From Escherichia coli (GTDB taxonomy: Bacteria > Pseudomonadota > Gammaproteobacteria > Enterobacterales > Enterobacteriaceae): a stretch of DNA of 64,000 nucleotides. The notes beneath the pieces are model-generated. The model saw only the letters and a program-made list of their open reading frames with translations. It did not search any database and was not told the origin of the DNA. The stretch lies in assembly GCF_044324785.1 (NCBI RefSeq), contig NZ_CP172127.1; one strand, given 5' to 3'. Below are positions 50,295-60,395 of this stretch, in pieces. How positions within the stretch are numbered: position 1 is the stretch's first letter; each line of letters opens with the position of its first letter. The position numbers and the translations under genes are program-made.

Positions 50295-50972
50295 ATGAAA
50301 CAGTATTTGATTGCCCCCTCAATTCTGTCGGCTGATTTTGCCCGCCTGGGTGAAGATACCGCAAAAGCCCTGGCAGCTGGCGCTGATGTCGTGCATTTTG
50401 ACGTCATGGATAACCACTATGTTCCCAATCTGACTATTGGGCCAATGGTGCTGAAATCCTTGCGTAACTACGGCATTACCGCCCCTATCGACGTACACCT
50501 GATGGTGAAACCCGTCGATCGCATTGTGCCTGATTTCGCTGCCGCTGGTGCCAGCATCATTACCTTTCATCCAGAAGCCTCCGAGCATGTTGATCGCACG
50601 CTGCAACTGATTAAAGAAAATGGCTGTAAAGCGGGTCTGGTATTTAATCCGGCGACACCGCTGAGCTATCTGGATTACGTGATGGATAAGTTGGATGTGA
50701 TCCTGCTGATGTCCGTCAACCCTGGTTTCGGCGGTCAGTCTTTCATTCCGCAAACACTGGATAAACTGCGCGAAGTACGTCGTCGTATCGACGAGTCTGG
50801 CTTTGACATTCGACTGGAAGTTGACGGTGGCGTGAAGGTGAACAACATTGGCGAAATCGCTGCGGCGGGCGCGGATATGTTCGTTGCCGGTTCGGCAATC
50901 TTCGACCAGCCAGACTACAAAAAAGTCATTGATGAAATGCGCAGTGAACTGGCAAAGGTAAGTCATGAATAA
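50295..50972 (+). CDS. rpe: ribulose-phosphate 3-epimerase
   Basis: 225-aa [24 protein letters not shown]...; matches my memory of Rpe. Confidence 0.96.
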
Positions 50973-51723: not shown

Positions 51724-52720
51724 GCCCATCGTTTTTAGTGGCGCACAGCCCTCAGGTGAATTGACCATTGGTAACTACATGGGTGCGCTGCGTCAGTGGG
51801 TAAACATGCAGGATGACTACCATTGCATTTACTGTATCGTTGACCAACACGCGATCACCGTGCGCCAGGATGCACAGAAGCTGCGTAAAGCGACGCTGGA
51901 TACGCTGGCCTTGTATCTGGCTTGTGGTATCGATCCTGAGAAAAGCACCATTTTTGTTCAGTCCCACGTGCCGGAACATGCGCAGTTAGGCTGGGCACTG
52001 AACTGCTATACCTACTTCGGCGAACTGAGCCGCATGACGCAGTTTAAAGATAAATCTGCGCGTTATGCCGAGAACATCAATGCTGGTCTGTTTGACTATC
52101 CGGTGCTGATGGCAGCGGACATCCTGCTGTATCAAACTAATCTGGTACCGGTGGGTGAAGACCAGAAACAGCACCTGGAACTGAGCCGCGATATCGCCCA
52201 GCGTTTCAACGCGCTGTATGGCGAGATCTTTAAAGTGCCGGAGCCGTTTATTCCGAAATCTGGCGCGCGCGTAATGTCGCTGCTGGAGCCGACCAAAAAG
52301 ATGTCCAAGTCTGACGATAACCGCAATAACGTTATCGGCCTGCTGGAAGATCCGAAATCGGTAGTGAAGAAAATCAAACGTGCGGTCACTGACTCCGACG
52401 AGCCGCCGGTAGTTCGCTACGATGTGCAGAACAAAGCGGGCGTTTCCAACCTGCTGGATATCCTTTCTGCGGTAACGGGCCAGAGCATCCCGGAACTGGA
52501 AAAACAGTTCGAAGGCAAGATGTATGGTCATCTGAAAGGTGAAGTGGCTGATGCCGTTTCCGGTATGCTGACTGAATTGCAGGAACGCTATCACCGTTTC
52601 CGCAACGATGAAGCCTTCCTGCAACAGGTGATGAAAGATGGCGCGGAAAAAGCCAGCGCGCACGCTTCCCGTACGCTAAAAGCGGTGTACGAAGCGATTG
52701 GTTTTGTGGCGAAGCCGTAA
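51716..52720 (+). CDS. trpS: tryptophan--tRNA ligase
   Basis: 334-aa class I aaRS with HIGH-like (TIGNYMGA) and KMSKS motifs; overlaps gph by 8 nt. Confidence 0.96.
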
Positions 52721-52736
52721 TTTAACATTAATGCCA

Positions 52737-52762
52737 AAAACCGGGGAAACCCGGTTTTTTTT
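52737..52762 (+). terminator. rho-independent terminator of the dam-rpe-gph-trpS transcript
   Basis: Stem AAAACCGGG/CCCGGTTTT with a GAAA loop followed by a T-run; 17 nt after the trpS stop. Confidence 0.8.
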
Positions 52763-52830: not shown

Positions 52831-52852
52831 TATCTTCATTTTTATGAAGATA
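52831..52852. promoter_or_regulatory. perfect palindrome TATCTTCAT-TTTT-ATGAAGATA about 30 bp upstream of yhfZ (candidate operator)
   Basis: 9-bp perfect inverted repeat arms with a 4-bp spacer read directly; AT-rich, so more likely a protein-binding site than an RNA hairpin. Confidence 0.45.
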
Positions 52853-52880
52853 TAAATATTCACTTTATTGAAAATTTACT

Positions 52881-53786
52881 ATGCGTCGAACGTTTATCAA
52901 AAAAGAAGGCGTCGTCATCACGACACTGGCCCGTTATTTGTTGGGTGAAAAGTGCGGTAATCGACTGAAAACCATAGATGAGCTGGCAACTGAATGCCGT
53001 TCATCCGTTGGCCTGACGCAGGCCGCGTTGAAAACGCTGGAATCAAGCGGAGCGATACGGATTGAACGCCGTGGGCGCAATGGCAGTTATCTGGTGGAAA
53101 TGGATAACAAAGCATTGCTGAGTCATGTGGATATCAACAATGTGGTGTGCGCGATGCCCTTGCCCTATACCCGTTTGTACGAAGGCCTGGCGAGCGGATT
53201 GAAAGCTCAGTTTGATGGCATTCCTTTTTACTATGCGCATATGCGCGGCGCGGATATTCGCGTGGAGTGTTTACTTAACGGCGTGTATGACATGGCGGTT
53301 GTTTCCCGACTGGCGGCGGAAAGTTATCTCACGCAAAAAGGCTTATGCCTCGCGCTGGAGTTGGGGCCGCACACCTACGTTGGCGAGCACCAGTTGATTT
53401 GCCGTAAAGGCGAGTCCGCAAACGTGAAGCGTGTGGGGCTGGATAACCGTTCGGCGGATCAGAAAATCATGACCGATGTTTTTTTTGGCGATACGGATGT
53501 GGAACGAGTCGATCTCTCCTATCACGAGAGTTTACAACGCATTGTTAAAGGCGATGTTGATGCGGTTATCTGGAACGTGGTGGCGGAAAACGAACTGACC
53601 ATGCTGGGATTAGAAGCGACGCCGCTCACAGATGATCCGCGATTTTTACAGGCCACCGAAGCCGTGGTCCTGACGCGAGTCGATGATTACCCAATGCAAC
53701 AACTGCTGCGTGCAGTTGTTGATAAACATGCCCTGCTTGCCCATCAACAACGCGTGGTGAGTGGGGAACAGGAACCCAGTTATTAA
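52881..53786 (+). CDS. yhfZ: putative DNA-binding transcriptional regulator YhfZ (N-terminal winged HTH)
   Basis: 301-aa ORF MRRTFIKKEGVVITTLARYLLGEK...; matches my memory of YhfZ. Confidence 0.85.
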   Translation: MRRTFIKKEGVVITTLARYLLGEKCGNRLKTIDELATECRSSVGLTQAALKTLESSGAIRIERRGRNGSYLVEMDNKALLSHVDINNVVCAMPLPYTRLYEGLASGLKAQFDGIPFYYAHMRGADIRVECLLNGVYDMAVVSRLAAESYLTQKGLCLALELGPHTYVGEHQLICRKGESANVKRVGLDNRSADQKIMTDVFFGDTDVERVDLSYHESLQRIVKGDVDAVIWNVVAENELTMLGLEATPLTDDPRFLQATEAVVLTRVDDYPMQQLLRAVVDKHALLAHQQRVVSGEQEPSY

Positions 53787-53802
53787 ACGAAAGGCATCTG
53801 AT

Positions 53803-54165
53803 ATGGAAACCAGACTCAACCTGCTTTGCGATGCAGGCGTTATTGATAAGGACATCTGCAAAGGCATGATGCAGGTCGTCAAGGTACTGGAAACAGAGTG
53901 CCATCTGCCGGTGCGCAGTGAGCAAGGAACGATGGCAATGACACATATGGCGAGTGCACTGATGCGCAGTCGCCGTGGTGAAGAAATAGAGCCGCTGGAC
54001 GCCGAATTGCTGGCAGAACTGGCGCAATCCAGCCACTGGCAAGCCGTTGTGCAATTGCATCAGGTGTTGTTGAAGGAATTTACACTGGAAGTTAACCCGT
54101 GTGAAGAAGGCTATTTGCTGGCCAACCTTTATGGATTATGGATGGCTGCTAACGAAGAGGTTTGA
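53803..54165 (+). CDS. yhfY: PRD-domain protein YhfY
   Basis: Start set at METRLNLLCDAGVIDKD (120 aa); the ORF track extends 14 codons upstream into yhfZ. Confidence 0.85.
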   Translation: METRLNLLCDAGVIDKDICKGMMQVVKVLETECHLPVRSEQGTMAMTHMASALMRSRRGEEIEPLDAELLAELAQSSHWQAVVQLHQVLLKEFTLEVNPCEEGYLLANLYGLWMAANEEV

Positions 54166-54195
54166 AGCTCCCGACAAATCCACGTCGCACAACCT

Positions 54196-54219
54196 AAATA
54201 TTCAAAAAAATGAATATTT
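54196..54219. promoter_or_regulatory. perfect palindrome AAATATTCA-AAAAAA-TGAATATTT about 30 bp upstream of yhfX (candidate operator or RNA element)
   Basis: 9-bp perfect inverted repeat arms with a 6-bp A spacer read directly, in the yhfY-yhfX intergenic region. Confidence 0.45.
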
Positions 54220-54248
54220 AATTCAAGGAACAGAAACGAGGCAACAAG

Positions 54249-55412
54249 ATGTTTGTAGAAGCATTGAAACGCCAGAACCCGGCGCTAATTTCCGCCGCAC
54301 TAAGCTTGTGGCAAAAGGGCAAGATCGCCCCGGACAGCTGGGTGATCGACGTGGATCAGATACTGGAAAACGGTAAGCGGCTGATTGAGACGGCGCGGCT
54401 TTACGGCATTGAACTGTATCTGATGACCAAGCAGTTTGGTCGTAATCCGTGGCTGGCGGAAAAACTGCTGCCATTAGGCTACAGCGGCATTGTGGCGGTG
54501 GATTACAAAGAGGCGCGAGTCATGCGCCGCGCCGGTTTGCCGGTGGCGCATCAGGGGCATCTGGTACAAATCCCTTGTCATCAGGTTGCTGACGCCGTTG
54601 CACAGGGCACCGACGTCATCACCGTGTTTACTCTCGACAAAGCGCGGGAAGTTTCTGCGGCAGCGGTGAAGGCCGGACGTGTGCAGTCTGTGCTGCTCAA
54701 AGTTTATAGCGACGATGATTTTCTTTATCCGGGGCAGGAGAGCGGTTTTGTACAGCATTCGCTGCACGAGGTGGTTGCTGAAATTAAGAAACTGCCGGGG
54801 TTGCATTTAGCTGGACTAACCCATTTCCCTTGCCTGCTTTGGGATGAGGCTGCCGGGAAAGTTTTGCCGACACCGAATCTTCACACGCTGATACAGGCAC
54901 GGGATCAACTGGCGAAATCTGGTATTGCGATTGAGCAACTGAACGCACCTTCTGCGACCAGCTGCACTTCGCTGCCATTGCTGGCGGAATACGGTGTGAC
55001 TCATGCCGAACCCGGTCATGCGCTGACGGGCACTATTCCGGCAAACCAGCAGGGCGATCAGCCTGAACGTATCGCGATGCTCTGGTTAAGTGAAATCTCC
55101 CATCATTTCCGTGGCGACAGCTACTGCTACGGCGGCGGTTACTACCGTCGTGGTCATGCGCAACATGCGCTGGTGTTTACGCCAGAAAATCAAAAGATTA
55201 CTGAAACCAATCTCAAAGCCGTGGATGACAGCAGTATCGACTACACCCTGCCGCTGGCAGGTGAGTTTCCGGTAAGCAGTGCAGTAGTGCTCTGTTTTCG
55301 CACGCAGATTTTTGTCACCCGTAGCGATGTGGTGTTGCTGTCCGGTATTCACCGTGGCGAACCAGAAATCGTCGGTCGTTATGACAGTCTTGGAAACTCT
55401 CTGGGGGCGTAA
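54249..55412 (+). CDS. yhfX: putative PLP-dependent alanine-racemase-fold protein YhfX
   Basis: 387-aa [28 protein letters not shown]...; matches my memory of YhfX. Confidence 0.88.
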
Positions 55413-56638
55413 TGGCGCGATTTGTGGTGTTAGTGATTGATAGCTTTGGCGTAGGGGCAATGAAAGATGTCACGTTGGTGCGTCCGCAGGATGCCGGGGC
55501 GAATACCTGTGGTCACATCCTGAGCCAGTTGCCGCATTTGCAGCTACCAGCGCTGGAGAAGCTGGGGCTAATCAACGCATTGGGTTATGCACCAGGTGAT
55601 ATGCAGCCGTCAGACTCCGCAACTTGGGGTGTGGCAGAGCTGCAACATGAAGGTGGCGATACCTTTATGGGGCATCAGGAAATTTTAGGCACGCGCCCGT
55701 TACCGCCGCTGCGGATGCCCTTTCGTGATGTGATTGACCGTGTTGAGCAGGCATTAGTTTCCGCTGGCTGGCTGGTTGAGCGTCGTGGCGATGATCTGCA
55801 ATTTCTGTGGGTCAATCAGGCGGTTGCGATTGGCGATAATCTCGAGGCGGATTTAGGCCAGGTCTATAACATCACCGCCAATCTCTCTGTGATCTCTTTT
55901 GACGACGCAATCAAAATTGGTCGTATTGTGCGTGAGCAGGTACAGGTCGGTCGGGTCATTACATTTGGTGGCCTGTTAACCGACAGTCAACGCATTCTCG
56001 ATGCCGCAGAAAGCAAAGAAGGGCGCTTTATTGGTATCAATGCGCCGCGTTCTGGCGCTTATGACAACGGCTTCCAGGTCGTGCATATGGGCTACGGTGT
56101 CGATGAGAAAGTGCAGGTGCCGCAAAAACTGTATGAAGCGGGCGTGCCAACCGTGCTGGTGGGTAAGGTGGCGGATATTGTCAGCAATCCTTATGGCGTG
56201 AGCTGGCAAAACCTGGTGGATAGCCAACGGATTATGGATATCACTCTCAACGAATTTAACACCCATCCGACGGCGTTTATTTGTACCAATATCCAGGAAA
56301 CCGACCTCGCTGGTCATGCAGAAGACGTCGCACGTTATGCCGAACGTTTGCAGGTCGTTGACCGTAACCTTGCCCGGCTTATTGAGGCGATGCAGCCAGA
56401 TGATTGCCTGGTCGTGATGGCGGATCACGGTAACGATCCGACCATTGGTCACAGCCACCATACCCGCGAAGTGGTGCCAGTGCTGGTTTATCAGCAAGGG
56501 ATGGTCGCTACGCAGCTCGGTGTGCGCACCACGCTTTCTGATGTGGGGGCTACCGTGTGTGAATTTTTCCGTGCGCCACCGCCACAAAATGGTCGCTCTT
56601 TTCTTTCCTCCCTCCGGTTTGCAGGAGACACCCTATGA
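55412..56638 (+). CDS. yhfW: putative phosphopentomutase-like metalloenzyme YhfW
   Basis: 408-aa ORF; its ATG overlaps the yhfX stop by 1 nt; matches my memory of YhfW. Confidence 0.88.
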
Positions 56639-57513
56639 GTATTGATCCGACGGGTTACACCCTCGCCCATGAGCATCTGCATATTGATCTCTCCGGCTTT
56701 AAAAACAACGTGGACTGCCGCCTTGATCAGTATGCGTTCATTTGCCAGGAGATGAACGACCTGATGGCCCAGGGCGTGCGTAATGTGATTGAGATGACCA
56801 ACCGTTACATGGGGCGAAATGCGCAATTTATGCTCGATGTGATGCACGAAACTGGCATCAACGTGGTGGCCTGTACCGGTTATTACCAGGATGCGTTTTT
56901 CCCGCAACATGTGGCGACCCGCAGCGTACAGGAACTGGCGCAGGAGATGGTCGATGAAATTGATCAGGGTATCGATGGCACGGAACTGAAAGCCGGGATC
57001 ATCGCGGAGATCGGCTCCAGCGAAGGGAAGATTACGCCGCTGGAAGAGAAGGTGTTTATTGCCGCCGCGCTGGCACATAACCAGACCGGACGCCCGATCT
57101 CCACGCATACGTCGTTCAGCACGATGGGGCTGGAACAACTGGCTCTGTTGCAAGCCCACGGAGTTAATCTTTCGCGCGTCACCGTTGGTCACTGCGATCT
57201 GAAAGACAACCTCGACAACATTTTGAAGATGATCGATCTCGGCGCGTATGTGCAGTTCGACACCATCGGCAAGAACAGTTACTACCCGGACGAAAGGCGC
57301 ATTGCGATGCTCCACGCGCTACGTGACCGTGGTTTGCTGAACCGCGTCATGCTGTCGATGGATATTACGCGCCGCTCCCATTTAAAAGCCAACGGTGGTT
57401 ATGGCTATGACTATTTATTGACCACCTTTATTCCGCAATTGCGCCAGTCAGGATTCAGTCAGGCCGATGTGGATGTGATGTTACGTGAAACTCCCTCTCA
57501 ATTTTTCCAATAA
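56635..57513 (+). CDS. php: phosphotriesterase homology protein
   Basis: 292-aa [25 protein letters not shown] (amidohydrolase HxH metal motif); ATGA overlap with yhfW. Confidence 0.9.
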
Positions 57514-57523
57514 GGACAGACTC

Positions 57524-57877
57524 ATGAAAAAGATTGGTGTTGCAGGCTTACAGCGTGAGCAGATTAAAAAAACCATTGAAGCGACGGCTCCTGGCTGTTT
57601 TGAAGTTTTCATTCACAACGACATGGAAGCGGCAATGAAAGTCAAATCCGGGCAACTGGATTACTACATCGGCGCGTGTAATACCGGTGCGGGCGCGGCA
57701 TTGTCGATTGCCATCGCGGTGATTGGCTATAACAAAAGTTGCACCATTGCCAAACCAGGCATTAAAGCGAAAGACGAACATATCGCCAAAATGATCGCCG
57801 AAGGGAAAGTGGCGTTTGGGCTTTCCGTTGAGCACGTCGAACACGCGATTCCGATGCTGATTAACCATCTGAAATAA
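57524..57877 (+). CDS. yhfU: uncharacterised protein YhfU
   Basis: Start set at MKKIGVAGLQREQIKK (117 aa); the ORF track extends 13 codons upstream. Confidence 0.85.
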   Translation: MKKIGVAGLQREQIKKTIEATAPGCFEVFIHNDMEAAMKVKSGQLDYYIGACNTGAGAALSIAIAVIGYNKSCTIAKPGIKAKDEHIAKMIAEGKVAFGLSVEHVEHAIPMLINHLK

Positions 57878-57888
57878 AAGGCACGACT

Positions 57889-59193
57889 ATGGATCTGTAT
57901 ATTCAGATTATCGTGGTGGCGTGCCTGACGGGTATGACATCGCTTCTGGCGCATCGCTCGGCGGCCGTTTTTCATGACGGTATCCGCCCGATCCTGCCGC
58001 AACTGATTGAAGGCTATATGAACCGTCGCGAGGCGGGGAGTATCGCTTTTGGTCTGAGCATTGGTTTTGTGGCTTCGGTGGGGATCTCTTTTACCCTGAA
58101 AACCGGACTGCTCAACGCATGGTTACTCTTTCTTCCTACCGATATCCTCGGCGTACTGGCGATAAACAGCCTGATGGCGTTTGGTCTTGGCGCTATCTGG
58201 GGCGTGTTGATCCTTACTTGCCTGTTACCGGTAAACCAGCTGCTGACCGCGCTACCGGTGGATGTATTAGGTAGCCTGGGGGAATTAAGCTCGCCGGTGG
58301 TTTCAGCTTTTGCACTGTTCCCGTTGGTGGCGATTTTCTACCAGTTTGGCTGGAAGCAAAGTCTGATCGCCGCCGTGGTGGTACTGATGACCCGTGTGGT
58401 GGTAGTGCGCTATTTCCCGCATCTCAATCCGGAATCCATCGAAATCTTTATTGGCATGGTGATGCTGCTGGGGATCGCGATAACTCACGACCTGCGTCAT
58501 CGTGATGAAAATGATATTGATGCCAGCGGGCTTTCGGTGTTTGAAGAACGCACGTCGCGGATTATCAAAAACTTACCGTATATCGCTATTGTCGGGGCGC
58601 TGATTGCCGCCGTTGCCAGCATGAAGATTTTTGCTGGCAGTGAAGTGTCGATCTTCACACTGGAGAAAGCATATTCCGCAGGCGTAACGCCGGAACAATC
58701 ACAAACGCTGATTAACCAGGCAGCTCTGGCGGAATTTATGCGCGGGCTGGGTTTTGTACCGTTGATTGCCACCACCGCGTTAGCCACTGGTGTGTATGCA
58801 GTTGCGGGCTTTACCTTTGTTTATGCGGTGGGCTATCTCTCGCCGAATCCGATGGTTGCAGCGGTATTAGGCGCAGTGGTTATTTCGGCGGAAGTCCTGC
58901 TGCTTCGTTCGATCGGCAAATGGCTGGGGCGCTATCCGTCGGTGCGTAATGCGTCAGATAACATCCGTAACGCCATGAATATGCTGATGGAAGTGGCGTT
59001 GCTGGTCGGTTCGATTTTCGCAGCAATTAAAATGGCGGGTTATACCGGATTTTCTATCGCAGTTGCCATTTACTTCCTCAACGAATCCCTGGGCCGTCCG
59101 GTACAGAAAATGGCGGCACCGGTCGTGGCAGTAATGATCACCGGTATTCTGCTGAATGTTCTTTACTGGTTTGGCCTGTTCGTTCCGGCTTAA
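57889..59193 (+). CDS. yhfT: putative inner membrane transporter YhfT
   Basis: 434-aa polytopic membrane ORF. Confidence 0.88.
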   Translation: MDLYIQIIVVACLTGMTSLLAHRSAAVFHDGIRPILPQLIEGYMNRREAGSIAFGLSIGFVASVGISFTLKTGLLNAWLLFLPTDILGVLAINSLMAFGLGAIWGVLILTCLLPVNQLLTALPVDVLGSLGELSSPVVSAFALFPLVAIFYQFGWKQSLIAAVVVLMTRVVVVRYFPHLNPESIEIFIGMVMLLGIAITHDLRHRDENDIDASGLSVFEERTSRIIKNLPYIAIVGALIAAVASMKIFAGSEVSIFTLEKAYSAGVTPEQSQTLINQAALAEFMRGLGFVPLIATTALATGVYAVAGFTFVYAVGYLSPNPMVAAVLGAVVISAEVLLLRSIGKWLGRYPSVRNASDNIRNAMNMLMEVALLVGSIFAAIKMAGYTGFSIAVAIYFLNESLGRPVQKMAAPVVAVMITGILLNVLYWFGLFVPA

Positions 59194-59204
59194 GGAAGGC
59201 ACCT

Positions 59205-60290
59205 ATGAAGACGTATCCTTTGCAAAGCCTGACGCTTATTGAGGCGCAGCAAAAGCAGTTTGCGCTGGTGGACACGATTTGCCGCCATTTTCCCGGCAGC
59301 GAGTTTCTTACCCGCGGGGATTTGGGCTTAACGCCGGGGCTGAATCAACCGCGCATTACCCAGCGAGTGGAACAGGTGCTGGCTGATGCATTTCACGCAC
59401 AGGCTGCGGCGCTGGTACAGGGCGCGGGTACTGGCGCGATCCGTGCGGCGTTGGCGGCTTTGCTCATACCGGGGCAGCGTCTTCTGGTGCATGACGCGCC
59501 TGTTTACCCGACGACTCAGGTCATTATTGAGCAGATGGGGCTGACGCTTATTACTGCTAATTTCAATGACCTGTCGGCACTTAAGCAGGTCGTCGAAGAG
59601 CAACAACCGGATGCGGCTCTGGTGCAGCATACGCGCCAGCAGCCGCAGGACGGGTACATTCTGGCAGATGTGCTGGCAACGTTGCGCTCGGCTGGCGTTC
59701 CTGCATTAACCGATGACAACTATGCGGTGATGAAGGTAGCGCGAATTGGCTGCGAATGCGGGGCAAATGTCTCGACTTTTTCCTGCTTCAAGCTGTTTGG
59801 GCCGGAGGGTGTTGGCGCGGTGGTAGGCGATGCCGATGTTATTAGTCGGATTCGCGCCACGCTCTACTCCGGCGGCAGCCAGATTCAGGGCGCTCAGGCG
59901 TTGGAAGTCTTGCGTGGGCTGGTGTTTGCGCCAGTGATGCACGCGGTGCAGGCGGGGGTATCTGAACGGTTGCTGGCCTTGCTCAACGGTGGTGCAGTTC
60001 CGGAAGTGAAAAGCGCCGTCATTGCCAATGCACAGTCGAAGGTGTTGATTGTCGAGTTTCATCAGCCGATTGCCGCCAGAGTGCTGGAAGAGGCGCAAAA
60101 GCGCGGTGCCTTGCCTTACCCGGTTGGTGCAGAGTCGAAATATGAAGTTCCGCCACTTTTTTATCGACTTTCCGGAACGTTTCGCCAGGCGAATCCGCAA
60201 CTCGAACATTACGCGATTCGTATTAACCCAAATCGCAGCGGTGAAGAGACGGTGCTGCGGATTTTGCGTGAGAGTATTGCGAGTATTTAA
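59205..60290 (+). CDS. yhfS: putative PLP-dependent aminotransferase-fold protein YhfS
   Basis: 361-aa ORF MKTYPLQSLTLIEAQQKQFALVDTI...; matches my memory of YhfS. Confidence 0.88.
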   Translation: MKTYPLQSLTLIEAQQKQFALVDTICRHFPGSEFLTRGDLGLTPGLNQPRITQRVEQVLADAFHAQAAALVQGAGTGAIRAALAALLIPGQRLLVHDAPVYPTTQVIIEQMGLTLITANFNDLSALKQVVEEQQPDAALVQHTRQQPQDGYILADVLATLRSAGVPALTDDNYAVMKVARIGCECGANVSTFSCFKLFGPEGVGAVVGDADVISRIRATLYSGGSQIQGAQALEVLRGLVFAPVMHAVQAGVSERLLALLNGGAVPEVKSAVIANAQSKVLIVEFHQPIAARVLEEAQKRGALPYPVGAESKYEVPPLFYRLSGTFRQANPQLEHYAIRINPNRSGEETVLRILRESIASI

Positions 60291-60349
60291 TGCTGGATAG
60301 CCCCGTTCGGCAATCAAGCTAAATTCAGCGCCGGACGGTCCCCGCAACG

Positions 60350-60395
60350 CGCCAGCATCGCCGGATGCGATGCTGGCGCATCTTATCCGGCCTAC
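60350..60395. repeat. REP element (palindromic units; 12-bp stem GCGCCAGCATCG/CGATGCTGGCGC plus ...CTTATCCGGCCTAC)
   Basis: Perfect 12-bp inverted repeat around a CCGGATG loop and a canonical REP tail between convergent yhfS and frlR. Confidence 0.6.

Follow-up and report, generated by a model that had tools for sequence, protein, structure and literature searches.

The yhf cluster of Escherichia coli (yhfZ-yhfY-yhfX-yhfW-php-yhfU-yhfT-yhfS) contains a self-contained module of seven genes, yhfZ, yhfY, yhfX, yhfW, php, yhfU and yhfT, which recurs across bacterial phyla and to which yhfS is accessory. We analysed the cluster in a stretch of 64,000 nucleotides (nt) from E. coli (RefSeq assembly GCF_044324785.1, contig NZ_CP172127.1), referred to below as the window, where it occupies positions 52,881 to 60,290. 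The best explanation of its features is a horizontally spread module for catabolism or salvage of a small phosphorylated compound; an ester or lactone bond and an amino-acid-like primary amino group are its probable features (e.g. an acylated or aminoacylated sugar or polyol phosphate). In full, this explanation has the module repressed by YhfZ and coupled to the phosphotransferase system (PTS), and in this form, the best-supported account of the locus, we favour it tentatively; in kind, the locus would be a repressor-controlled catabolic gene cluster. The original prediction, made from the letters of the window, had described a compact catabolic operon and had read meaning into its position next to the fructoselysine (frl) genes. 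Its compact cluster, catabolic-type gene content and protein families stood; its frl argument did not, and its claim of a single operon has to be modified.

The genes of the cluster are as follows.

yhfZ: 52881-53786, + strand, 301 amino acids (aa)
yhfY: 53803-54165, + strand, 120 aa
yhfX: 54249-55412, + strand, 387 aa
yhfW: 55412-56638, + strand, 408 aa
php: 56635-57513, + strand, 292 aa
yhfU: 57524-57877, + strand, 117 aa
yhfT: 57889-59193, + strand, 434 aa
yhfS: 59205-60290, + strand, 361 aa

All eight open reading frames (ORFs) are intact, co-directional and located where they had been predicted. Translation of yhfY and yhfU starts at ATGs inside longer mechanical ORFs; both starts are preceded by Shine-Dalgarno-like sequences and give lengths that agree with annotation. 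The overlaps claimed for yhfX/yhfW (1 nt) and yhfW/php (4 nt) were borne out. The other gaps had been put at about 10 nt, which is right for php/yhfU (10 nt), yhfU/yhfT (11 nt) and yhfT/yhfS (11 nt), with 16 nt at yhfZ/yhfY, but not for yhfY and yhfX, which are 83 nt apart.

The YhfT family is rare: in a search of 1.84 billion proteins, 303 representative clusters reached E ≤ 0.001. When 100,044 species were scanned, each represented by a single genome, relatives turned up at 138 places, from which 80 loci were kept; the scan was seeded with a 6-sequence YhfT alignment, and the 80 loci are therefore biased to closer relatives. They belong to Enterobacterales, Vibrionaceae, Sebaldella (Fusobacteriota), Clostridia and Bacilli. 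By tblastn, yhfU and yhfT were present in all 80 loci, php in 77, yhfX in 75, yhfZ and yhfW in 71 each, yhfY in 65 and yhfS in 39. Genes yhfZ, yhfX, yhfW, php, yhfU and yhfT occur together in 64 of the 80 loci, and since the compact co-directional block recurs in so many loci from five bacterial groups, its arrangement is not a matter of chance. Gene order is Z-Y-X-W-php-U-T-S in enteric bacteria, Z-Y-php-U-T-X-W in Vibrionaceae, where no locus has yhfS, and Z-Y-U-T-php-(S)-X-W in Clostridia; Enterovibrio has a reduced module of U-T-X-W only. The flanks of the module are unrelated between bacterial groups (Vibrio, Fusobacteriota, Firmicutes). Even metagenomic YhfT homologues at 27-37% identity keep the Pfam set of the module (HTH_41/YhfZ_C, PRD, DUF2620, YhfT, PTE, Ala_racemase_N/YhfX-like_C and Metalloenzyme).

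Copies of the module were found on a 244-kb Vibrio plasmid, a 705-kb Cetobacterium replicon and a 485-kb Bacillus thuringiensis plasmid. The B. thuringiensis copy (locus L092, 15743-18711) reads Y-U-T-php-S-X, without Z or W; two co-oriented ATP-grasp genes come after it. In Vibrio sp. ES.051 (L047, 14165-16430) two ORFs of 504 and 253 aa, located 342 nt past yhfW, look by eye like an IS21-type transposase pair; if confirmed, the pair fits horizontal mobility of the module.

The regulator YhfZ scored 373 bits against the full-length family model NF041241 (YhfZ_full, cut-off 260), and its residues 74-301 are those of PDB entry 2OZZ. In profile comparison its N-terminal winged helix-turn-helix resembles CodY and FadR/GntR, and homologues carry Pfam domains HTH_41 and YhfZ_C. 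The C-terminal family, PF14503, is counted among solute-binding-protein (SBP) signatures; a profile of this domain matched only its own structure, 2OZZ, in the PDB, which gives no clue to the ligand. We predict that YhfZ is a winged-helix repressor with an SBP-like C-terminal domain. Three candidate binding sites for it lie in the window (palindromes, no strand assigned).

O1: 52832..52851, predicted YhfZ operator ATCTTCA-N6-TGAAGAT, a perfect 9+9 palindrome in the yhfZ promoter region
O2: 52856..52875, predicted YhfZ operator ATATTCA-N6-TGAAAAT, ending 5 nt before the yhfZ start codon
O3: 54198..54217, predicted YhfZ operator ATATTCA-N6-TGAATAT, a perfect 10+10 palindrome in the yhfY-yhfX gap

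These are the only three matches to ATNTTCA-N6-TGAANAT in the window, where shuffled sequences give an expectation of 0.24. In the 80 loci, the regulatory DNA of the cluster (24.5 kb) contains 98 copies of the core TTCA-N6-TGAA (4.0 per kb) and the other 1.49 Mb contains 72 (0.048 per kb), an 83-fold enrichment. At least one site is present in 53 of the 69 loci that have yhfZ and a full upstream region, including those of Vibrio, Photobacterium and Sebaldella, and the Enterovibrio loci, which lack yhfZ, have zero sites of the core motif. The second tandem site before yhfZ is kept in Escherichia, Citrobacter, Klebsiella, Buttiauxella, Cedecea and Chimaeribacter, and O3 is nearly identical in Escherichia, Citrobacter, Klebsiella, Trabulsiella and Enterobacter sp. 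BIGb0383. Judged as a GntR-type repressor, YhfZ has the winged helix-turn-helix and a predicted operator next to its own gene that co-varies with the presence of the regulator. The palindrome AT-N-TTCA-N6-TGAA-N-AT is thus probably the YhfZ operator. By eye, its spacing does not fit the consensus sequences of CRP, FNR, ArgR or NagC/Mlc.

Palindromes before yhfZ and before yhfX imply two regulated promoters, and O3 likely controls a predicted internal promoter for yhfX-yhfS. Neither regulatory region gave a good sigma-70 promoter in a consensus scan. The yhfY-yhfX gap was also considered as an RNA element or terminator and rejected (no Rfam match, fold z = −1.67, no U-run). The likeliest layout is therefore read-through from the yhfZ promoter combined with a second regulated promoter. 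The one evident operon of the original prediction survives as a compact co-directional cluster, but its unity is called into question by the operator-like palindrome in the 83-nt gap and by an operon table derived from E. coli databases, in which php-yhfSTUWX is given as a unit and yhfZY are left out (PMC4448311).

YhfY matches the Pfam PRD model weakly (E = 0.0099), and its homologues are annotated with PF00874. His48 is invariant across the family; the second canonical PRD histidine is kept only in Firmicutes YhfY, and proteobacterial copies keep only His48. The 120 aa of the protein comprise the PRD only, with no attached RNA- or DNA-binding output domain. YhfY is predicted to be a stand-alone, single PRD-like domain that serves as a PTS-phosphorylated co-regulator. 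The familiar PRD regulators (antiterminators BglG/LicT, activators MtlR/LevR) likewise have a PRD whose phosphorylatable histidine is conserved, and a further likeness is the genomic link to HPr/Enzyme I; unlike them, YhfY has no CAT, DNA-binding or EIIA/EIIB-like domain, DNA binding being left to the separate protein YhfZ.

The lack of a PTS partner in cis, which had been called unusual, holds for E. coli but not for other lineages, where HPr, Enzyme I or EIIC genes lie in or beside the cluster. An HPr-family gene stands directly 3′ of the cluster in Caproiciproducens (L074) and Firmicutes HGW-7 (L077), HPr genes lie inside two metagenomic clusters (L095 and L098), and an Enzyme I (PtsI) gene overlaps the end of yhfW in Clostridiales UBA4039 (L071), so that five non-proteobacterial lineages have HPr or Enzyme I within the cluster or next to it. 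A cellobiose-type EIIC gene precedes yhfZ in L084. The cis-encoded HPr paralogues retain the His15 motif. No EIIA-type family was found in any cluster surveyed and no kinase among the recurrent cluster genes.

The family identities predicted for all eight products were checked and each of them holds. YhfW passes the model NF009049, which fits its whole length, with 737 bits, and matches phosphopentomutases in the PDB at E of about 1e-31; it falls below the cut-offs of the DeoB models (146 vs 341 for TIGR01696; 184 vs 256 for NF003766). In 72 sequences D10, D83, T84, D298, H302, D338, H339 and H350 are invariant; mapped onto the residues of Bacillus cereus phosphopentomutase, these are the metal ligands and the Thr84 nucleophile. 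By these sequence criteria YhfW is a phosphopentomutase-like phosphomutase with a binuclear metal centre.

Php (PDB 1BF6 and 4LEF; 645 bits against NF007373) has a binuclear metal site in a TIM barrel, with H12, H14, E125, H158, H186 and D243 invariant across the family. It shares the metal site and the TIM-barrel family with phospho-sugar lactonases of the phosphotriesterase (PTE) family and PTE-like lactonases (COG1735), and its nearest named relatives include phospho-furanose lactonase. Still, Php is outside the defined PTE subfamilies, with 98 bits against a cut-off of 630 for phospho-furanose lactonase and 100 against 500 for organophosphate hydrolase (OPH), and it differs from lactonase/OPH-type PTE enzymes in having the invariant Glu125 at the position of the bridging ligand. 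Work from the Raushel laboratory (Nemmara et al. 2018, Biochemistry) is reported to have found that Php hydrolyses only phosphorylated glyceryl acetates, the phosphate being needed.

Two pyridoxal phosphate (PLP) enzymes complete the set. YhfX (PDB 4KBX, ‘uncharacterized protein YhfX’) is a fold-type III, alanine-racemase-like enzyme with a weak match to ornithine racemase; its homologues carry Pfam domains Ala_racemase_N and YhfX-like_C, and Lys61 is invariant. YhfS (PDB 4J8L, ‘uncharacterized protein YhfS’) is a fold-type I enzyme with weak matches to the methionine gamma-lyase, cystathionine gamma-synthase and MJ0158 families and with invariant K196 and D170. With the metal sites of YhfW and Php and the PLP lysines of YhfX and YhfS all invariant, the enzymes of the module look active. 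As for substrates, a pdxB deletion is rescued equally well by overexpressed php and by pdxB itself, php working via an unidentified route to 2-oxo-3-hydroxy-4-phosphobutanoate (PMC3010111); rescue through this phosphorylated C4 keto-acid suggests that Php acts on small phosphorylated metabolites.

The remaining pair, YhfU and YhfT, has the least familiar features. YhfU is small, cytoplasmic and assigned to DUF2620 in Pfam; structure comparison shows that it has the RpiB fold. Its sequence C52-N-T-G-A-G aligns on the catalytic loop C-G-T-G-L-G of Clostridium thermocellum RpiB, with C52, T54, G55 and G57 shared; Cys52 never varies, and either Thr or Ser occupies position 54. Opposite the ‘EHND’ segment of RpiB, which holds its His/Asn pair, YhfU has a ‘KDEH’ segment that is not conserved, and YhfU ends before the region of the C-terminal helix of RpiB. 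A relationship to RpiB by sequence was rejected (E of 0.3-0.9; E = 0.16 against Pfam LacAB_rpiB, not significant). Thus the fold and one catalytic loop are RpiB-like but the His/Asn pair and the family model fail, and membership in the RpiB isomerase family is not established. YhfU further differs from RpiB/LacAB proteins, with which it shares the fold and the catalytic cysteine loop, in its length (117 aa vs about 150) and in being tied to a membrane protein. The D-allose (als) logic of RpiB plus a 3-epimerase has a parallel in metagenomic locus L094, where the DUF2620-YhfT pair comes with a ribulose-phosphate 3-epimerase family gene.

In the loci mapped, yhfU stands directly 5′ of yhfT, and it is an obligate partner, present in 80 of 80 loci. 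YhfT (PF10797) is a conserved polytopic membrane protein. No solved structural relative of it was found by structure comparison and no known EIIC fold was recognized; identification with a known transporter or an EIIC fold was left unsupported. YhfT is presumed to be a transporter. Fusions of YhfU and YhfT seen in the protein database were dismissed as probable indel artefacts, since the frames of yhfU and yhfT differ. The most distant YhfT homologue (26% identity; L090, 9001-10978) has no U, X or W nearby and a 5′-methylthioadenosine/S-adenosylhomocysteine (MTA/SAH) nucleosidase gene 14 nt away, and in Clostridium citroniae a YhfT homologue is fused to an amidase domain (AFDB G5HJH7); together these two cases suggest that YhfT-family proteins may serve more than one pathway. 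Metagenomic locus L096 (4771-8708) has two YhfT paralogues with an amidase-like gene and a DUF2620 gene between them, and two SBP_bac_3 genes (polar-amino-acid-type) downstream.

From these parts we infer the following working of the YhfZ-repressed, PTS-coupled module. YhfT, with YhfU as its RpiB-fold partner, would import the compound. Php would cleave the carboxyl-ester or lactone bond of a phosphorylated intermediate, YhfW would shift the phosphate between hydroxyls to yield a sugar phosphate of central metabolism, and YhfX would racemise, epimerise or cleave the amino-bearing part in a PLP-dependent reaction; YhfS (with PLP) or an amidase may lengthen the pathway in lineages having either. 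YhfZ would repress the promoters before yhfZ and yhfX through the palindromes, an inducer on its SBP-like domain would release it, and YhfY would report the phosphorylation state of HPr and the PTS to this switch. Phosphorylated substrates are proposed because YhfW belongs to the phosphomutase superfamily, Php is close to phospho-furanose lactonase and the pdxB rescue route (PMC3010111) runs through a phosphorylated compound.

Several observations weigh against this proposal. The one feature that points to transport by YhfT is its conserved polytopic membrane nature, and CUT1-type ATP-binding cassette (ABC) transporter genes in L082, L095 and L098 make this job of YhfT less certain. Amino acids are the substrates of fold-type III PLP enzymes, with no pointer to the one that YhfX would use. 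YhfW is absent in several Yersinia and Php, YhfZ and YhfY are absent in Enterovibrio; the steps can therefore not follow one set order in every lineage. The promoter scan of the two regulatory regions came out negative, as described above, and the hints from neighbouring genes (NagB, amidase, MtnN, 5′-nucleotidase) diverge.

Each of these neighbour associations is limited to one to three lineages. NagB is found beside the cluster in two Bacilli; an amidase-family gene in Sebaldella, Cetobacterium and L096, besides the C. citroniae fusion; genes for a periplasmic e(P4) 5′-nucleotidase and a PhoC-like phosphatase after yhfT in two enterobacteria; the ribulose-phosphate 3-epimerase family gene of L094 directly before DUF2620-YhfT; and a Cof-type HAD phosphatase in L097. 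Taken together, the neighbours suggest a chemistry of sugar phosphates or amino sugars, in some cases involving an amide bond, with no single substrate agreed. A choline trimethylamine-lyase/PFL2-type glycyl-radical enzyme gene two genes downstream of the cluster in Firmicutes UBA6806 (L072, 7466-9844) is probably unrelated.

In E. coli itself, at least 80% of the yhf region is kept in 5059 of 5426 complete genomes. The K-12 locus (yhfZYXW-php-yhfUTS, b3383-b3376) is the same as that of the window, with identical gene order and lengths; the seven genes compared have nucleotide identities of 91.8-97.5% and amino-acid identities of 95-100%. The window carries a minority allele: among 5,428 matching E. 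coli records, 335 are at least 99% identical over the region and most are at 95-97%. Synonymous divergence (dS) from K-12 is 0.305 for yhfS and 0.05-0.15 for the other yhf genes compared; yhfS has 91.8% nucleotide identity to K-12 and the neighbouring frlR 98.1%, which looks like a recombination mosaic. Ratios of nonsynonymous to synonymous divergence (dN/dS) against K-12 are 0.33 for yhfY, 0.18 for yhfX, 0.06 for yhfW, 0.10 for php, 0 for yhfU, 0.02 for yhfT and 0.08 for yhfS, and YhfU and YhfT are 100% and 99.5% identical to their K-12 counterparts despite dS of about 0.13-0.14. Judged by dN/dS of 0-0.33 and the invariant catalytic residues, the yhf genes are under purifying selection in E. 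coli and functional. Every yhf gene is labelled putative or uncharacterized in the K-12 RefSeq record, and the depositors of the YhfZ, YhfX and YhfS structures likewise label these proteins uncharacterized or putative. In agreement with the original prediction, no substrate or pathway was found in the literature searched; a published pathway assignment had been named there as its refutation. Nor was a phenotype or an inducing condition for the yhf operon found in that literature.

Other readings of these data can be weighed against the favoured one. In the first place, YhfT-YhfU could be an unrecognised HPr-dependent group translocator, with phosphate passing from HPr~P to Cys52 of YhfU and the substrate being phosphorylated on entry. 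This is a sharper version of the favoured explanation rather than its opposite, and we regard it as possible, though on the whole unlikely. Group translocation would explain enzymes for phosphorylated substrates despite the lack of a kinase among the recurrent genes; it also suits the constant pairing of yhfU with yhfT (directly upstream where mapped), the invariant cysteine in a Gly-rich loop, the four lineages that encode HPr with an intact His15 motif in cis, the further lineage with Enzyme I in cis, and the PRD protein of the module. Yet the EIIA domain was found in no cluster, L098 has YhfT and HPr with no DUF2620 gene on the contig, and the cis-encoded HPr could serve PRD phosphorylation only. 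A bolder form, in which YhfT and YhfU make up a new class of HPr-dependent translocator (a membrane fold without a solved relative plus an RpiB-fold phospho-cysteine carrier) for an unmapped class of nutrients, such as pentose or polyol phosphates esterified with acyl or aminoacyl groups and set free in the turnover of nucleic acids, teichoic acids or ADP-ribose, seems rather doubtful. About as doubtful is a ribosyl- or pentose-derived substrate (a modified nucleoside, an acylated ribose phosphate or a ribosyl-amino acid), for which YhfW would be a true pentose phosphomutase (1-phosphate to 5-phosphate) and YhfU an aldose-ketose isomerase of pentose or hexose phosphates. Phosphopentomutases are indeed the best matches of YhfW, and the RpiB fold of YhfU with its Cys-x-Thr/Ser-Gly-x-Gly loop, the 3-epimerase family gene in L094, the MTA/SAH nucleosidase gene adjoining the most distant YhfT homologue and the nucleotidase and phosphatase genes after yhfT in two enterobacteria are consistent with such a substrate, though each neighbour association is limited to one or two lineages. 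However, the RpiB His/Asn pair is not conserved where aligned in YhfU, the N-terminal Asp/His and C-terminal Arg residues of RpiB seem by eye to be absent, YhfU reaches only E = 0.16 against LacAB_rpiB and YhfW stays under the DeoB cut-offs; the canonical cluster also lacks a nucleoside phosphorylase or hydrolase, and E. coli already has deoB and rpiA/rpiB.

Two further readings concern the locus in E. coli. The adjacency of the frl genes had been taken as a hint to function, and one may suppose that the yhf operon works with or parallel to frl on an Amadori-type glycated amino acid. The clusters are adjacent in the window and in K-12, a sugar phosphate coupled to an amino acid moiety would feature in both, and an amino-sugar phosphate intermediate would suit the NagB gene found next to the module in two Bacilli. 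As a functional hint, though, the adjacency failed: the yhfS-frlR junction exists in only 2952 of 5426 complete E. coli genomes (54%), and frl was found beside the cluster in none of the non-Escherichia loci mapped. Strain KE55, whose yhf allele is closest to that of the window, has no frl and continues from yhfS to yhfL-cysG, the frl island being polymorphic in E. coli; the mapped Klebsiella locus has cysG-nirC after yhfS, as in frl-less E. coli strains. Moreover, the two clusters are convergent with a palindromic repeat element between them, and a family-model scan found no homologue of the frl kinase, deglycase or epimerase in the yhf module. We therefore consider a joint role with frl very improbable. 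Still less credible is a silent, decaying remnant in E. coli, as might be suspected from the negative promoter scan, from the absence of a phenotype or inducing condition in the literature searched and from the roughly 7% of complete E. coli genomes that lack most of the region. Against decay stand the eight intact ORFs, dN/dS of 0-0.33, the invariant catalytic residues, the near-identity of YhfU and YhfT to those of K-12 and the retention of the region in the great majority of genomes.

The boundaries of the cluster in the window are marked by two elements, the first of which follows the trpS stop at 52720, upstream of yhfZ.

52736..52759, + strand: trpS intrinsic terminator (10-bp perfect stem, 4-nt loop and T-run), 16 nt past the trpS stop
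60329..60392, no strand assigned: repetitive extragenic palindrome (REP)/BIME-type palindromic element between the convergent yhfS and frlR, with nested 13- and 14-nt inverted repeats

The trpS terminator is the upstream boundary of the yhf unit. Compared with the REP-derived naRNA4 of Rfam, the REP-type element scored 33.8 and 25.5 bits on the two strands, below the gathering score of 59.5. A terminator scan found no T-run terminator downstream of yhfS. The housekeeping gene rpe (ribulose-phosphate 3-epimerase; 50295-50972) is located three genes upstream in the dam-rpe-gph-trpS block, a proximity that is most likely coincidental.

Two known systems resemble the yhf module in part. The EF_0829/AHA_3910 cluster (TIGR03576-TIGR03583) has in common with it a stand-alone PRD, a Gly-rich-Cys protein of about 120 aa, novel membrane proteins, an amidohydrolase and a PLP enzyme. 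However, YhfY scores 28.7 against a cut-off of 69 for TIGR03582 and YhfS 18 against 304 for TIGR03576, YhfU and YhfT have no match to families of that cluster, and it has a KDPG-type aldolase and, unlike yhf, is not known to have a phosphomutase or racemase-fold enzyme. We know of no function assigned to it. The D-glucosaminate (dga) system of Salmonella, a mannose-type PTS with the PLP ammonia-lyase DgaE and an aldolase, is similar in linking the PTS with a PLP enzyme that acts on a phosphorylated amino compound. It differs in its canonical EIIABCD permease and sigma-54 LevR-type activator, and it is not known to have a PTE-family hydrolase, phosphomutase or YhfT/YhfU pair.

The locus itself has long been known; our literature searches turned up no earlier description of a module spread across phyla, of the predicted operator, of DUF2620 having the RpiB fold, of the absence of a solved relative of YhfT or of the linkage to HPr. 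The yhf cluster is among the larger fully intact gene clusters of K-12 without a function, though four of its proteins have crystal structures, and the module, the predicted operator and the HPr link make this orphan operon directly testable. If YhfT/YhfU is truly a new device for uptake or phosphorylation, it would mean a further transporter family and a role not seen before for the RpiB fold, and knowing the substrate would close a gap in what is understood of gut and marine bacterial metabolism.

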